A stretch of DNA of 64,000 nucleotides from Candidatus Latescibacterota bacterium (lineage in GTDB: Bacteria; Latescibacterota; UBA2968; GCA-2709665): positions 1,824,001-1,888,000 of the forward strand of contig OZ242180.1 in NCBI GenBank assembly GCA_965205485.1, in the 5' to 3' direction. Below the pieces are notes generated by a model. The model had not been told where the DNA came from and did no database searches. It saw nothing but the letters and a program-made list of their open reading frames with translations. Below, one piece after another: positions 25 to 64,000 of the stretch; position 1 is the first letter of the stretch; each line of letters starts with the position of its first letter. Made by a program: the position numbers and the translations under genes.

Positions 25-221
25 CCTTCGACAAGCTCAGGACGGCGCCTTCGACAAGCTCAGGACGGCGCCTTCGACAAGCTCAGGACGGCGCCTTCGA
101 CAGGTTCAGGAATGGGCGGGTGAGACCTGAGCCGCTCCCTGAGCTTGTCGAAGGGTCGGCGAAGGGATATCGATTGGCCATTGACGAATAATGAAACGCG
201 CGCATTTCGACAAGCTCAATG
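25..221. repeat. Tandem and inverted cluster of a TTCGACAAGCTCA REP-like palindrome
   Basis: Three exact 23-bp units CCTTCGACAAGCTCAGGACGGCG (25-93), a degenerate fourth (94-110), an inverted copy CCCTGAGCTTGTCGAAGGG (137-155) and CATTTCGACAAGCTCAATG (~203-221). Confidence 0.9.
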
Positions 222-285
222 AGCACGTTTCAGCGAGACGCGATGAATCGGCAGTCGAATGGTGAGGTTTTGTCGGGACAGAACG

Positions 286-57170: not shown

Positions 57171-59060
57171 ATGAACCCGGTATCGGAAAACCGTAGCGCG
57201 GCGCCGGCGGGAATGAGCCGTAAGGCCGTACGCAGGCGACTCAATGAGATTGTGTCTCATATGCCGCGGGAACCCGGTGTGTATATGTTGAAGGACGAAC
57301 GGGGGCGGATCATATATATAGGAAAGGCGAAGTGCCTGCGAAGCCGTGCGCAATCCTACATCCGGTCCAACGCGTACGACGGACGGCGTCAGTTCCGGGC
57401 GCTCGTACGTAACGCGCGGGACCTGGAATACATCGTAGCGGATACCGAGGTGGATGCCCTGATCCTGGAGTCCAATCTGATCAAGGAGCATAAGCCCCGG
57501 TACAACATAAACCTGAAAGACGACAAGAAGTACCCGTTTGTCCGGATTACGGATGAGCCCTTTCCCAGGATTCTGTTTACACGCGACGTGGTCAAGGACG
57601 GTTCGCGTTATCTGGGACCCTATACGGACGTCAAGGCCCTGCGCCGGACCCTCGAAACCATGCACCGGCTGTTCCGTATACGGAGCTGTGACTACGCGTT
57701 GCCGGCAACGAACGTCCGTCTCTGTCTCGACTATGAGATCAAACGCTGCGACGGCCCCTGCGAGGGGCTTATCCCGGCAGCGGAATACCGCAAGATCGTG
57801 CGCGAGGCCGTGCTGTTTCTGACGGGTCGCCATACGCAGGTGGTGGCAGCGCTGAAGGAACGCATGCGGAATGCGGCCGCCGAACAGCGATTCGAGGAGG
57901 CCGTGGTCTACCGCGACCGGCTCCGTGACCTGGAGCAGACGACCAACCGCCAGAGGGTGGTGTCCGCGGAACAGAAAGACTGGGACACGATCGCGGTAGC
58001 CAGGGAAGACGACGAAGCCTGCTGCGTGGTGATGGAGGTACGCGAGGGAAGGCTGATCGGGAGGCAGCACTATTTCCTGGGCGGCGTGCTGGACGCGCCG
58101 ATCGAAGAGGTGGTTGGCACCTTCGTCCAGTTGCTCTATCTGACGGCATCCTTCGTGCCGGAGGAAATCTGTCTGCCGTGCGATATCGAGTCGCGGGAGA
58201 CCGTGCTGGACTGGCTGAGGGGGCGGGCAGGGGGTCTGGTGGAAATCCGGGTGCCCCAGCGGGGCGACAAGGCACGGCTGGTGAAGATGGCCGAAAACAA
58301 CGCGGCGCTGTTGCTCAGCGAGCGCCGGTTGAGGCGCGAGAACAGGAGGTCACAGGCGCCCGCCGCGGTCGCCGCGTTGCAGCGCGACCTGCGCCTCGAG
58401 CGGCCCCCGAAGCGGATCGAGGCCATGGACATTTCGAATTTCCAGGGTTCGGACCCCGTGGCGTCGCTGGTGTGTTTCGTTGACGGGCGGCCCCGGAAGT
58501 CCGAGTACAGGCATTTCAGGATTACGGGTATCGAAGGCCCGGACGATTTCGCGATGATGCGGCAGGTGGTGACGCGGCGTTTCAAACGCCTGATGGAGGA
58601 GGGACGGGCGTTTCCCGATCTGCTCCTGATCGACGGCGGAAAGGGGCAGCTCTCCAGCGCGGTGGCGGCGTTGAAAGAGATCGGCGTCAGCGATCAGCCC
58701 GTGATCGGCCTCGCCAAGCGTCTCGAGGAAGTCTTCCTGCCGTCCCATTCGGATCCGCAGAATATCCCCAAGGCATCGGCGGCGCTCAAGCTGTTGCAGG
58801 CCGTGCGGGATGAATCGCACCGGTTCGCCGTCACCTATCACCGCAAGTTGAGGCAGAAACGAACGCTGGCTTCCCGTCTGGATGAGCTCGATGGGGTGGG
58901 CCCGGCCCGGCGGAAAGCGATGCTGGCGCATTTCGGATCCATGAAAAAGATCCTGGAGGCAGGCGCATCGGAACTGGCGGCGGTGGAGGGCATCGGACCG
59001 AAGCTTGCCGAACACATCGCGGAACAGCTGGCGATGGATCTGTCGAAACCTACCCCCTGA
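57171..59060 (+). CDS. uvrC: Excinuclease ABC subunit C
   Basis: PGVY..YIGKAK, KPRYNINLKDDKKYP, DISN, LIDGGKGQL, RDESHRFA, HhH end. Confidence 0.97.
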   Translation: MNPVSENRSAAPAGMSRKAVRRRLNEIVSHMPREPGVYMLKDERGRIIYIGKAKCLRSRAQSYIRSNAYDGRRQFRALVRNARDLEYIVADTEVDALILESNLIKEHKPRYNINLKDDKKYPFVRITDEPFPRILFTRDVVKDGSRYLGPYTDVKALRRTLETMHRLFRIRSCDYALPATNVRLCLDYEIKRCDGPCEGLIPAAEYRKIVREAVLFLTGRHTQVVAALKERMRNAAAEQRFEEAVVYRDRLRDLEQTTNRQRVVSAEQKDWDTIAVAREDDEACCVVMEVREGRLIGRQHYFLGGVLDAPIEEVVGTFVQLLYLTASFVPEEICLPCDIESRETVLDWLRGRAGGLVEIRVPQRGDKARLVKMAENNAALLLSERRLRRENRRSQAPAAVAALQRDLRLERPPKRIEAMDISNFQGSDPVASLVCFVDGRPRKSEYRHFRITGIEGPDDFAMMRQVVTRRFKRLMEEGRAFPDLLLIDGGKGQLSSAVAALKEIGVSDQPVIGLAKRLEEVFLPSHSDPQNIPKASAALKLLQAVRDESHRFAVTYHRKLRQKRTLASRLDELDGVGPARRKAMLAHFGSMKKILEAGASELAAVEGIGPKLAEHIAEQLAMDLSKPTP

Positions 59061-59282
59061 CCCCCTTCCTGAAGGAAGAAGGAAGAAGGAAGAAGGAAGA
59101 AGGAAAAGGTAGCGGTAACTTTGACCTCTGTCACTTCTGCAATCGGACTCTCTCAAAAACCAAATGGAAGCGGATTGCTGAGGAGAGCGGAAAACCGGCG
59201 GCGTTTCCTTGAAAATCAGAGTATCACAACTGTCCAAAATCGTCTCTTCCAACCACTATCACGACATGATCCACCTGCAACC

Positions 59283-59429
59283 GGAGCGAGGGCATCCTGC
59301 CCTCGAACTTCGCGTCACCGACCCCTATTCCCGTCGAGAGACTGACTGTCCATTCAATCCCACACCGGGTCACGGAAAACACCGTGTGCGACGAGTTATC
59401 CGATGTCGAGGGCAGGATGCCCTCGCTCC
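59283..59429. repeat. Inverted REP pair GGAGCGAGGGCATCCTGCCCTCG with ~100-bp spacer
   Basis: 59283-59305 and its reverse complement at 59407-59429. Confidence 0.9.
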
Positions 59430-59627
59430 CGGGAACGCCAACCGCACCGGTCACAAATCAGTTTCTGTCCTGGACAGCCGTGGCCAAATGAGGGGGATCT
59501 GCATTGGCACTTCGAAACGACTTTCAAGAAAACCAGGTACTTACGTATCCAAAATCGTCTTTTTCAAACTATCTTGGACAGCAGTGTCAGAGTGTCTATA
59601 GATGACCGGCACGCGGAGCCTGCTTTC

Positions 59628-59760
59628 CTCCCTCTTTCCTTTAGGAGAGAGGGCCGGGGAGAGAGGTCTGCGGGGTGGTGAGGGGTTGCTTTTGCTTTTC
59701 GCCTACTTGCTTTTCGTTTTTAGCTGATGGCTGACGGCTGAGAATTGATAGCTGACAGCT
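59628..59760 (+). repeat. Composite module (copy of 16562-16685)
   Basis: 41-bp identity, then GCTTTTGCTTTT and GCTGATG/GCTGACG/GCTGACA heptamers. Confidence 0.88.
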
Positions 59761-59793
59761 TTATCTGAGGGGCCGGGAGCGAGGCCCATTAAC

Positions 59794-60318
59794 GTGGAGA
59801 ACACTGTGAAAAATGGAAACGGCACAACATCGGCGGTTCAATCCGCCGTCCTTCAGACGGGCCTGGGCCAGGTGGAGGTCGCGTGGGCAGGCACCCGTCT
59901 GGCGTCTGTCCGGCTGGGCCGCTTCGCAAGGGTCGATATCGCCCGTCCCGCGCTGGTTGACGGCAATCCCCCGGATCCGGCGGGCCAGCGCCTCCTCGAC
60001 GCGCTGGCCGGTTACTTCTCCGGTGAGCCCGTGCGGTTTCACGACCTCCCGGACCTGTCCGGACATACGGCTTTTCAGGAGATGGTCTGGCGGGCGACGC
60101 GTGAGATTCCGTATGGCGTGCGGCGGTCTTACGGCGACGTCGCCAATGCGGTCGGTCGCCCGAAGGCCGCCCGCGCGGTGGGCGCCGCGCTCGGGAAGAA
60201 CCCTTATGTGATCGTGGTGCCATGCCATCGGGTTGTGGGGGCTTCCGGGGCGTTGACGGGTTTCGCCTACGGAGGAGAATGGAAAGCCGCCCTGCTGGCG
60301 CTGGAGGGAATCGGGTGA
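59794..60318 (+). CDS. ogt: Methylated-DNA--protein-cysteine S-methyltransferase
   Basis: IPYG, AARAVG, active-site PCHRV. Confidence 0.92.
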   Translation: MENTVKNGNGTTSAVQSAVLQTGLGQVEVAWAGTRLASVRLGRFARVDIARPALVDGNPPDPAGQRLLDALAGYFSGEPVRFHDLPDLSGHTAFQEMVWRATREIPYGVRRSYGDVANAVGRPKAARAVGAALGKNPYVIVVPCHRVVGASGALTGFAYGGEWKAALLALEGIG

Positions 60319-60335
60319 CAGGGGAGAACGCGGGA

Positions 60336-61274
60336 ATGGCGGCTATGGCCGATATCGATGAGGGCGAACAGCGCCTGACGGCACAGTGGCGCAACGCGCT
60401 GCGCGGGTTCCTGGATTACGTTCACCTGGAGCAGGGTCTGGCAGAGAATACCGTATCGGCCTATGCCCGGGACCTGGAACGGTACGCCACCGTACTGGAG
60501 GCGCGGGGCGTAACAACGCCGGTCCGCGTGTCGCAGGCGGACGTATCCTCGCTTTTGCGGTTGCTGGGTGAACTCGGCCTGGAAGCGTCCAGCGTGGCGC
60601 GAAACCTCACCGCCGTCCGGATGTTTCATCGGTACCTGCAGGCGGAGGGGATGATCGAAAACGACCCCACCGAGCATATGAAGTCGCCCAAACTGGGCCG
60701 GAAACTGCCAGCTGTCCTGAACATATACGAAGTGGAACGCCTGATGATGGAGCCGGACGTGGAGACGACTCTGGGTCTCCGCGACCGCGCGCTGCTCGAG
60801 ATGTTGTACGGAGCGGGTCTCCGGGTTTCGGAACTGATCGGCCTGGAACGGATGCACCTCCTGTTCGACCTGGAGGTGGTGCGCGTGATCGGCAAGGGCA
60901 GCCGGGAGCGGATCGTGCCCATCGGATCGGAAGCCGTGGCGTGGGTCAGTCGCTATCTGACCGGCGCACGCGAGGAATTGAGCGGCCCGGCGTCGGGGAA
61001 TACGGTTTTCCTGAATTTCCGCGGCGGGGCCATGTCGCGAATGGGCGTGTGGAAGATACTGAGGCGCTTCGTTCAGAACGCCGGTATCCGGAAATCGGTG
61101 AGCCCGCACACGATGCGCCACTCGTTCGCGACCCATCTGCTGGAGGGCGGCGCCGACCTCCGCGCCGTACAGGAAATGCTGGGGCACGTGGACATTTCGA
61201 CCACACAGATCTACACCCACGTGGACCGCGAATACCTCAAAGAGGTCCACCGCTCCTTCCATCCAAGGGCATAA
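60336..61274 (+). CDS. xerD: Site-specific tyrosine recombinase XerD
   Basis: GLAENTVSAYARDL, RDRALLEMLYGAGLRVSEL, PHTMRHSFATHLLEGGADLRAVQEMLGHVDISTTQIYTHV. Confidence 0.93.
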   Translation: MAAMADIDEGEQRLTAQWRNALRGFLDYVHLEQGLAENTVSAYARDLERYATVLEARGVTTPVRVSQADVSSLLRLLGELGLEASSVARNLTAVRMFHRYLQAEGMIENDPTEHMKSPKLGRKLPAVLNIYEVERLMMEPDVETTLGLRDRALLEMLYGAGLRVSELIGLERMHLLFDLEVVRVIGKGSRERIVPIGSEAVAWVSRYLTGAREELSGPASGNTVFLNFRGGAMSRMGVWKILRRFVQNAGIRKSVSPHTMRHSFATHLLEGGADLRAVQEMLGHVDISTTQIYTHVDREYLKEVHRSFHPRA

Positions 61275-61501
61275 GAAGGAAAAAGAAAAAGGAAGAAGGA
61301 AAAAGGAAGAAATGCGGGGAGAAGGTAGACGGAAAAAAAGGGCGGGTAGAGGTAAGAGGGTAGACGATAAGATAAATGCGGGGAGACGGGAGAGGGTAGA
61401 CGTTAGAAGAAATGCGGGGAGACGGTAGAGGTGAGACGGTAGAAGAAGCCATTGCCAATATGATCCTCCAACTTGCCTGCGGCACCCATCGCCAGGCTCA
61501 C
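61274..61501 (+). repeat. Purine-rich repeat run and truncated copy of the 120-bp hairpin element
   Basis: AAGGAAG runs; repeated AAATGCGGGGAGA and GTAGAC units; degenerate core TTGCC..GCCTGCGGCAC..CTCAC; right arm missing. Confidence 0.75.
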
Positions 61502-61562
61502 GTAGCGGTTCAAGGCATCGGGGGTGCCGGTCGCGGCACATTTGGCTCATTGAAACTTTTCA

Positions 61563-62152
61563 ATGCGTGGTCATTGAGCATGCCTGCATTGAGCTTGTCG
61601 AAATGTCGAAATGCCCGTGATCTGGCAACCCGTCTACGGTCCTCTGAAGCGCAACCACTGAGACTCTCTGAACGAGCGCAGATTTGCAAGAAGCCTACAT
61701 GTACATTCTGGTTTGTTCTAACGGCAAATATTACACGGGTAGTACTAACGACGTCAGAGAAGACTTGCCAGAGAAGACTTGCCGAGCACAATGCAGGTGA
61801 AGGGGCGAATTACACACGCAAATTTCGGCCTGTCAAGTTGGTGTATCTTGAGCGGTTCTCAAGACTTGATGACGCATATTTTCGTGAAAAGCAAGTGCAA
61901 GGATGGAGTAGGAAGAAGAAGGAAGCTTTGATAAATGGCGAGAGCGCCATATTGCCACGGTTATCGAGGAATTCTCGCCAAAATCGAAAACATGGAAGAT
62001 AAGACCAGGGCCCTTATGGCCAATTTGAACTTATCCATGCGTGGTCATTGAGCTTGTCGAAATGCCCGCGATATGGAATCCTTCGACCCTTCGCCGGCCC
62101 TTCGACCCTTCGACAGGCTCAGGGACCGCAATCTCAGGGATCGGCTAAGGGC
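61563..62152 (+). mobile_element. Putative GIY-YIG nuclease unit bounded by direct REP-like repeats
   Basis: ATGCGTGGTCATTGAGC..TGTCGAAATGCCCG at 61563-61617 and 62037-62068; nested CCCTTCGACAGGCTCAGGG copies at 62080-62151; lower-GC interior. Confidence 0.55.
61684..62002 (+). pseudogene. GIY-YIG nuclease (UPF0213/YhbQ-like), frameshifted
   Basis: YMYILVCSNGKYYTGSTND, then in another frame RRLAEHNAGEGANYTRKFRPVKLVY..REKQVQGWSRKKKEALI; tandem 14-bp repeat at 61755-61782. Confidence 0.88.
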
Positions 62153-62224
62153 GCGGGTGGATGATGTTAATTGCGCTTGTCCAGTCAGGCCGCCCTCATC
62201 AACCCCATTGCGACGTTTACAACC

Positions 62225-63313
62225 ATGCAAAAAGCATTCACGGATCTCAGCGAATACCTGCAGGAGGTCGAAATCCTGTCCTCCGCGCCCTGCCGGCTGG
62301 ACGTTGGCGGCACGTGGGACCTCAAGTGCTTCGCGCTGCCCTACGCCAGCCTGAATCCCGCCACCACCAATATCGCCATCTCCGCACGCACCGGCATCCG
62401 CCTCAAAGCCTGCGAGCCGGGCTACGTCCGGATTCTGGATGAATTCCATCGCGAGACGTTTCCCGCGGACGCGCCCGACATGACGGGCCATTTCGGACTT
62501 CTGTTCGCGATCGCGGCCCACTTCGCGCTGGGAGGCGTCGAAATCGAAATCTCGTACGGCTGCCCGCCCCGCAGCGGTGTGGGCGGGTCAGGCACGCTCT
62601 CGGTGGCCCTGGCCGGAGCGCTCGCCCGCGCAAGAGAACGGGTTGGAGGCGAGCGTCTTTCGCCGGAGGAGATCGTCGAGATCGTCTACAATATCGAAGA
62701 CGGTTTGCGGTTCTCGTATACCGGCCTGCAGGACCAGTGCGCCGCCGCTTACGGGGGCGTCAATACCTGGCGGTGGACTTACGGAAACCCGGGTGGAAAG
62801 TTTCGTAGGGAGGCGATTCTCTCGCCGGACCAATACAGCGCCCTGGGCGAACGTCTTCTGGTGGCCTATATTGGCAAACCGCATGATTCGAACGACGTCA
62901 ACAGCCGGCAGGTCGAGGACTTCCTTGCGGGTCGGCATCGAGGCCGGTGGTTCCGCGTCAATGAAATCGCTACGGAGTTCGCCGGGGCGCTGAAACGGGT
63001 AGACTGGGAGGCCGCCGGCAGATTGATGAACGAGGAAACTGCGATTCGCTGCGCGATCGTTCCGGCCCGGATAACCGTGCTCGGAGAAAAGCTTCAGGCC
63101 GTTTGCGCGGAATTCGGCGCGGGTTTCGCCACGGCAGGCAGCGGTAACGGCGGATGCGTCTGGGCGCTTGCGCCGAAAGCCGATATCGTACCCGCACTCT
63201 CGACCGCCTGGAGCGAGGTACTGTCCGCCGTCCCCACGGCGCGAATCCTTCCCGCGACGGTCGATGCCGCCGGCCTTAAGGTGAAGCAGGTTTCTCCGGG
63301 ATGCCCCACGTGA
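62225..63313 (+). CDS. GHMP-family sugar kinase (HddA-like)
   Basis: SAPCRLDVGGTWD; PPRSGVGGSG; GLQDQCAAAYGG; GSGNGG. Confidence 0.85.
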   Translation: MQKAFTDLSEYLQEVEILSSAPCRLDVGGTWDLKCFALPYASLNPATTNIAISARTGIRLKACEPGYVRILDEFHRETFPADAPDMTGHFGLLFAIAAHFALGGVEIEISYGCPPRSGVGGSGTLSVALAGALARARERVGGERLSPEEIVEIVYNIEDGLRFSYTGLQDQCAAAYGGVNTWRWTYGNPGGKFRREAILSPDQYSALGERLLVAYIGKPHDSNDVNSRQVEDFLAGRHRGRWFRVNEIATEFAGALKRVDWEAAGRLMNEETAIRCAIVPARITVLGEKLQAVCAEFGAGFATAGSGNGGCVWALAPKADIVPALSTAWSEVLSAVPTARILPATVDAAGLKVKQVSPGCPT

Positions 63314-64000
63314 ACGCAGATTCTGAAATTGTCTCGCGGAGACACCTGCTATCCATCATGATTCCCGTTTACAACGAGGAGAATACGCTTGAGGCCGTGA
63401 TCGAACGTGTCAGGGCCGTGCCGGTTCAGGAAGGCGTTGACAGGGAAATCATCGTGGTGGATGACGGCTCCACCGACGGGACCGGAGCCATACTGGAGAA
63501 TCTGAACCATCACGTTATCAGGGTGGTCCGCCATCTCCGGAACATGGGAAAGGGCGCGGCGGTCAGAACGGCCCTGACGCATGCAACCGGAGACTGGGTC
63601 CTCATTCAGGATGCGGACCTGGAATACGCGCCCGAAGACTACCCTGAACTGATCGCCCCCTTTCTGAGAGACCCGTCCATCGTCGCGGTGTTCGGTTCGC
63701 GTTTCCTTGGCCGGATCGAAGGCATGAAGCTGCCTAACTTCATCGCCAACAAACTGCTCACCTGGTTTACGAACGTCCTCTTTCATTCACGGATTACCGA
63801 CCTTTGTACAGGGTACAAACTCTACCGGACCGAAGTCGTGCGTGAGATTCCACTCGTTCGGGACGGCTTCGACCTGGAACACGAACTCACGGCCAAGCTC
63901 CTGAAACGAGAGTGCCGGATCGTCGACGTCCCGATAAAGTACACAGGGCGGGACGTGAGCGCCGGCAAGAAGGTGCGCTGGACCGATTTCTTCATCAACA
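63310..64000 (+). CDS. Glycosyltransferase family 2 (DPM1-like), truncated by the window end
   Basis: Manual translation from GTG 63310: LSIMIPVYNEE, IIVVDDGSTDGT, NMGKGAA, IQDADLEY, FGSRF. Confidence 0.9.
   Translation, partial: MNADSEIVSRRHLLSIMIPVYNEENTLEAVIERVRAVPVQEGVDREIIVVDDGSTDGTGAILENLNHHVIRVVRHLRNMGKGAAVRTALTHATGDWVLIQDADLEYAPEDYPELIAPFLRDPSIVAVFGSRFLGRIEGMKLPNFIANKLLTWFTNVLFHSRITDLCTGYKLYRTEVVREIPLVRDGFDLEHELTAKLLKRECRIVDVPIKYTGRDVSAGKKVRWTDFFIN

Follow-up and report, generated by a model that had tools for sequence, protein, structure and literature searches.

A stand-alone GIY-YIG nuclease gene and its GGT-tagged hairpin in a Latescibacterota genome: a candidate sister system of the Ssn nucleases

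The stretch of DNA analyzed here (the window) comprises 64,000 nucleotides of the genome of a Candidatus Latescibacterota bacterium (contig OZ242180.1, positions 1,824,001 to 1,888,000). Near its right end the spacer between xerD and a GHMP kinase gene holds an intergenic gene for a single-domain protein of about 96 amino acids, accompanied by several copies of a short hairpin (Table 1). A first-pass annotation, made from the letters of the window, had described a stand-alone GIY-YIG gene of low GC content, and both points are borne out: the frame matches PF01541 (Pfam, E 3.8e-9), the gene is the sole stand-alone GIY-YIG gene found in this genome and its GC content (44.7% vs 60% genome-wide) belongs to the lowest 0.6% of 304-bp windows. 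Translation may start at a TTG (61684) or at an in-frame ATG (61699) and ends at a TAA (62002). The protein falls in a branch on the UPF0213 side of the tree, termed clade A, and its closest homologue in named genomes, among the best 80 of 485 relatives, is titled Ca. Latescibacterota. The same annotation knew of no established role for GIY-YIG proteins with such repeats; an established precedent exists in the single-domain cd10448 (Ssn) proteins, which cut single-stranded DNA (ssDNA) next to flanking hairpins and whose likeness to REP-RAYT systems is already drawn in the same paper (Chenal et al., 2025; PMC11893778).

The residues Y2, Y12, R22, H26, and E59 are invariant in the 23 proteins aligned. 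The gene is 85% identical to the intact ortholog of the relative G005, relative to which the assembly contains 13 extra nt, so that the earlier description of this copy as frameshifted is true of the assembly. Contigs from 4/4 read sets (all of one study, from at most two samples and possibly including the source sample) lack the 13 nt and match the rest of the gene exactly; the frameshift probably stems from misassembly or from a minority allele. Because of these contigs, and of dN/dS values of 0.09–0.17 vs G005 and G012 that denote purifying selection, the gene is probably intact; its dS is about twice that of xerD in both pairs. In other homologues, the clade A domain of L369 (genome G113) lies inside an open frame of 701 aa, which may be a fusion or may result from read-through across hairpins, and in L046, L049, L055, and L059 the reading frame continues through downstream hairpins into variable C-terminal tails.

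Table 1. Coordinates of the nuclease gene, the hairpin copies and neighboring features in the window.
Feature	Position	Strand	Remark
Stand-alone GIY-YIG nuclease gene, clade A (UPF0213 side)	61684–62002	+	Pfam PF01541
13 extra nt, from a 14-nt tandem duplication; frame shifted in assembly	61755–61768	+	Absent from read contigs
Left hairpin (GGT tag, 3-bp stem, TGAG-loop-CGAA), interrupted by nested copy	61563–61617	+	
Nested 23-nt hairpin unit in loop of left hairpin	61583–61605	+	Commonest nesting register of the genome
Second hairpin of left type, repeating the first directly; 32-mer without interruption	62037–62068	+	Core 62049–62061
Right arm: opposite-strand nested hairpin cluster	62078–62143	-	
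Right arm: 23-nt GGT-tagged unit	62106–62128	-	Nested within outer copy 62098–62139
Upstream flank, site-specific, common to G005 and G010	61481–61562	+	Single copy in genome
Degenerate opposite-strand hairpin copy within upstream flank	61484–61507		
Gene-less cluster of the same hairpin	25–225	.	Four units at 23-nt period, two more copies

The gene had been placed between 32-bp direct repeats. The right copy is exact, the left one is broken by the 23-nt nested unit, and the repeat is longer than the 32-mer (61535–61630 vs 62009–62081, 79–85% identity). The second copy nested in the left repeat, the nested cluster of opposite orientation on the right and the gene-less palindrome cluster given as 25–221 are all present. 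The view that an adjoining hairpin element had simply lost its right arm is not tenable: in G010 the same left hairpin is joined directly to the spacer and right arm, an arrangement which indicates that the gene, together with the second left hairpin, lies within the spacer of an element with two arms. The gaps of the uvrC-ogt-xerD-kinase region are hot spots for several repeat families. Purine-rich degenerate 36-nt repeats, numerous both in read contigs and in the spacers of relatives, follow xerD (61275–61450), and another palindromic family lies between uvrC and ogt (59140–59600). Sequence similar to the latter precedes RAYT-like HUH genes in relatives from the genus (L443–L447), and such repeats may constitute a separate REP-RAYT system of the genus.

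The hairpin was defined on 79 clade A loci, a set consisting of the best 80 of 485 confirmed relatives minus four rows (L033, the same locus as L005; L074, L082, and L086, with an identical protein or a short match) plus the loci of three relatives. The consensus at these loci (best 80 of 485) is a CGGT tag, a variable 3-bp stem, TGAG, 5–6 nt, CGAA and the closing stem. Bases at the three stem positions differ freely from copy to copy, yet pairing is retained in 94, 92, and 91% of the 283 copies from the same loci (best 80 of 485), which indicates that the hairpin is under selection. Folding of single hairpins gives weak z-scores (-0.7 to -2.6), so that the hairpin structure rests on covariation; TGAG and CGAA could conceivably pair as tandem G-A mismatches. 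Stem covariation cannot separate RNA from ssDNA, and the hairpin copies examined are mostly intergenic, as would also be expected if the hairpins were RNA elements (for termination, mRNA stability or autoregulation) and the protein, by binding its own transcript, co-varied with them. This explanation is nevertheless improbable: hairpin orientation differs between the two sides of the gene, a largely uninformative promoter and terminator scan found no terminator-like site at the hairpin-nuclease locus, an Rfam scan of 59000–64000 found no family near gathering score and SsnA, the Ssn nuclease of Neisseria meningitidis, does not bind RNA (PMC11893778).

The core is matched 10 times in the window vs 0.49 expected, and its 13-nt form has 148 exact copies in the genome (5.13 Mb) vs 2 for a reversed control. 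The GGT tag is kept in only 37/132 stemmed cores of this genome. The hairpins are dispersed as inverted dimers, polymorphic between relatives; gene-less two-arm elements are many, with 38 inverted pairs in this genome. Nesting is frequent (65/162 cores lie in another core). Forty nested cores are consistent with a unit of 23 nt that runs from the tag to the end of the stem, with a margin of 1–2 nt at the junction, and 30 of these 40 units occupy one loop position, although the copies do not represent independent events. Within a nest the inner stem often differs from the outer one, which indicates that the inner unit came from elsewhere.

The association of gene and hairpin extends well beyond this genome. 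A first scan with the window's own core (up to 2 mismatches) found most clade A loci flanked (best 80 of 485). With a core pattern that was refined on these same loci, 75/79 of them have a core within 400 bp, and 44 have it on both sides, again among the best 80 of 485 relatives; the refuting condition set by the first-pass annotation, that homologues be flanked by the repeat no more often than random genes, does not hold. Cores near the gene number 289 in 62 kb vs 40 in 158 kb of distal sequence (4.6 vs 0.25 per kb), and a generic hairpin scan detects 73/79 loci, with 4.59 vs 0.18 per kb distally (both best 80 of 485). The linkage spans about ten phyla, and in most homologues the gene lies between inverted hairpins, the nearest downstream copy being on the bottom strand in 59/71 loci and the nearest upstream copy on the top strand in 32/48 (all within the best 80 of 485). 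A direct-repeat hairpin copy 3' of the gene is found in G000, G005, and G012. By eye, a further UPF0213-side group (L007, L008, L009, L010, and L014) also has flanking hairpins, with the same GAG...CGA ends and with long internal stems or other loops.

Tag and loop vary with the enzyme, as the first-pass annotation had proposed for protein clade and repeat. The GGT tag occurs at 63/79 clade A loci, the GTC tag at 0/79, and GTC at positions -7 to -5 in 3/283 clade A hairpins (best 80 of 485 relatives in each case); 8/8 further carriers have GGT as well. GTC tags characterize 21/22 loci of a sister clade and 19/80 Ssn-side loci, and GGT was found at none of either. This sister UPF0213-side clade (L371–L392, from the genus of G041) is placed outside the Ssn side of the tree and has GTC-tagged TGAG...CGAA hairpins. 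On the clade A tree (75 labelled rows; best 80 of 485) three loop classes, defined after these loci had been seen, require 6 changes vs 33.8 when shuffled (as few in 0/200 shuffles), and every class occurs in several phyla (best 80 of 485); the trees were built on 81–92 columns and kin are not independent.

Gene and hairpin also co-occur at the level of genomes within Flavobacterium, the genus of L107. In 151 genomes all 8 clade A carriers, one of which was the search centre, have 3–17 GGT hairpins, at least two of them far from the gene in each, and the 143 non-carriers comprise 2 genomes with at least three such hairpins, 5 with 1–2 and 136 with none; since kin are not independent, no p-value is claimed for this co-occurrence. 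All 15 genomes of the Latescibacterota genus hold 39–154 cores, but the gene was found in only 3, and the 12 repeat-rich genomes in which it was not found indicate that the repeats can be maintained in its absence. Among 26 relatives from outside that genus, the gene was found only in G024, which also has the highest copy number (40); its own genus has 0–2.

Spread of REPs is attributed to HUH RAYT transposases, and the clade A loci share with REP/REPIN-RAYT (TnpA-REP) systems one enzyme gene flanked by repeats, gene-less two-arm elements and a predicted tag-dependent specificity. A RAYT-type HUH transposase, present or past, could have spread the hairpins with the GIY-YIG gene as a passenger: RAYT-like genes occur in 8/14 genus relatives and decayed fragments in this genome, and the units recall HUH chemistry in being precise and having no fixed target duplication. 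The clade A enzyme, however, is a hydrolytic GIY-YIG protein and not an HUH tyrosine transposase, its gene is patchy within the genus, and no HUH Y1 transposase was found beside the repeat at clade A hairpins. This genome has no Y1 transposase above threshold, only decayed fragments; the hairpin is next to 0/42 Y1-transposase loci and, in 15 further RAYT-like or Y1-domain regions, a single nearby core was seen in one (a weak match, G020) and none in the other 14. Y1 matches occur in 117/151 Flavobacterium genomes vs GGT hairpins in 15, and three clade A carriers possess GGT hairpins but no Y1 match, in line with the earlier expectation that repeat abundance does not track RAYT/Y1. Likewise, CGTC-type repeats are described as unlinked to tyrosine transposases by Di Nocera et al. 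(2013; PMC3733652). Spread by a RAYT is thereby largely refuted and can be regarded as very improbable indeed.

With regard to known systems, the closest in anatomy is Ssn (PMC11893778), in which, as here, a single-domain GIY-YIG gene of about 95 aa is flanked by its own tagged, oriented and genome-dispersed hairpin; both pairs are patchy and widely distributed, and the catalytic Tyr, Tyr, Glu have the same spacing (Y2, Y12, E59 in clade A; Y6, Y17, E64 in SsnA). Part of the Ssn side even uses the same TGAG...CGAA inner motif. In contrast, a 99/100 branch separates clade A from the NTS-flanked proteins (32–41% identity), and a joint clade of the two is rejected (p-AU 0.005, under a simpler model and with the group chosen after the first tree). 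Membership of cd10448 was judged by proxy, with six NTS-flanked proteins as Ssn anchors; no metagenome contig matched the published ssnA primer, and Neisseria SsnA itself is therefore not in the trees. Clade A hairpins also differ in having GGT and not GTC as tag and in missing the conserved C after the stem. The SRM pattern, which combines the two (GTC tag, C after stem), matches 0/79 clade A loci (best 80 of 485 relatives), 6/6 NTS anchors (selected on NTS) and 11/80 Ssn-side loci, and none of its 48 matches in this genome overlaps a hairpin core. Nesting and insertion polymorphisms, as found in clade A, are not described in the available part of PMC11893778. Thus the clade A pair resembles the Ssn pair by anatomy but lies outside the SRM pattern and, by the anchor proxy, outside the cd10448 clade; as judged from sequence, it forms a system sister to Ssn that differs in enzyme branch and tag.

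Other classes agree in part. CGTC-tagged REP families, which "apparently lack a dedicated transposase" (PMC3733652), are likewise short tagged palindromes, often in inverted dimers and with no link to a tyrosine transposase; the clade A hairpin differs from them, as far as that text describes them, by its GGT tag, 3-bp outer stem, 11–12-nt inner motif and linked nuclease gene. An unpaired CGTC-like tag before an 8–9-bp stem starting with AT is all but absent from clade A hairpins and present in the sister-clade and Ssn-side types, and the GTC-tagged sister types may overlap with the CGTC-2 to -4 REPs, with which they were compared by textual description. The solved structures best matched by sequence are UPF0213 proteins (PDB 1zg2, BH0048, E 1.7e-15; 1ywl, EF2693, E 3.2e-13), and UPF0213 structures are also closest by fold and stand on the same side of the tree; E. 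coli yhbQ, however, is operonic with no hairpin within 400 bp, whereas clade A genes are patchy, low in GC and hairpin-flanked. The two housekeeping UPF0213 controls, yhbQ and L012, both lack hairpins, and as YhbQ relatives in phage contigs gave one partial match, this control is thin. NCBIfam has no match over cut-off for the clade A protein. A GIY-YIG homing endonuclease was considered and rejected, there being no extra DNA-binding domain and no intron or intein (TIGR01453, 21 bits vs a cut-off of 56). A search that reached few subscription journals found no literature on the clade A branch or its hairpin. The enzyme-hairpin concept is already published for Ssn (PMC11893778); what is new is that tag and loop follow the enzyme branch, the co-occurrence in Flavobacterium, the lack of a Y1 link, the empty and gene-less alleles and the unit of about 23 nt.

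Empty xerD-kinase sites had been anticipated in relatives, and among 12 of them a 15-bp empty spacer is found in 4. The cassette is present in G005. In G010 there are two hairpin elements and no gene, and the second of them corresponds to the present allele minus the gene and one hairpin; unrelated repeats occupy the site in 4 and one is truncated. G003 and G011 were left out for want of a full xerD match, and the G006 contig ends in the spacer. The spacer of G008 (L136) holds a different cassette, an Ssn-side gene (L015:1495–1776) with GTC-tagged hairpins, which are also missed by the SRM pattern. A local kinase tree at this site is unresolved and does not tell gene gain from loss. In G012 the same cassette, of about 770 bp, lies at the uvrC-ogt junction, which is empty in G001, G007, and G009; the 13-bp direct repeat at its ends is not provable as a target duplication. 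A 48-bp solo hairpin of G024 is absent from 6/6 aligned relatives. Read contigs, which drop rare variants, contain no clean excision joint, and apparent gene-skipping joints in them proved to be other repeat copies with other letters between the two sides. Overall, the clade A gene appears to have been gained and lost repeatedly while the hairpins persist.

This record could also be accounted for by a nuclease that mobilizes nothing, that is, an SsnA-like hairpin-specific ssDNA enzyme that trims incoming or recombining ssDNA for the host or for itself; the hairpins would then multiply through gene conversion, slippage or recombination in the host, and the gene would be carried along with them. 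Lowering the integration of transforming DNA is the only role shown for SsnA (PMC11893778), plain recombination between direct repeats explains the G010/G000 allele pair, a nested copy is formally equivalent to two short tandem duplications meeting in the loop, and the repeats are abundant in the genus genomes without the gene. The differing stems within nests are harder to reconcile with it, as are the GGT hairpins far from the gene, which occur almost only in carriers, and the gain of gene and 40 copies by G024; it is considered less likely than spread driven by the enzyme.

GIY-YIG enzymes hydrolyse DNA and are not known to join strands or to possess any strand-transfer chemistry, so that spread of the repeat would need host repair. 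The best explanation, to which we assign a probability of roughly 55%, is that the clade A enzyme binds and cuts the GGT hairpin as ssDNA and lets the host spread hairpin and cassette. The nuclease would bind the tagged hairpin in single-stranded form and cut beside it, the ends produced by hydrolysis would be open to host ligase or recombination, and host repair and recombination would then spread the hairpin and the gene cassette; gain or loss of the gene at the xerD-kinase site would proceed by recombination between the two direct-repeat hairpins. That the enzyme cuts ssDNA specifically at its cognate hairpin is a prediction held with considerable confidence, on the model of Ssn. Cleavage by SsnA depends on the three bases that precede the stem (PMC11893778), and by the same analogy cleavage in clade A would be specific for strand and for ssDNA and would read the tag. 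The weakest step is that the cuts may create new hairpin copies. A bolder and doubtful extension is that small GIY-YIG nucleases beyond Ssn are the missing mobilizers of non-RAYT REPs, in which case clade A would excise the GGT monomer of about 23 nt from ssDNA and host repair would paste it into hairpins or new sites, a minimal selfish element without HUH, DDE or recombinase enzymes.

The principle of Ssn, a tiny nuclease with a cognate ssDNA hairpin, would thus be extended to branches on the UPF0213 side that escape the published search pattern. Part of an uncharacterized family gains a testable substrate, and a new specificity of ssDNA cleavage, the GGT tag, is predicted. For the question left open in 2013, namely what copies the transposase-less REP families, a candidate enzyme, a 23-nt unit, an insertion register and empty alleles are now specified.
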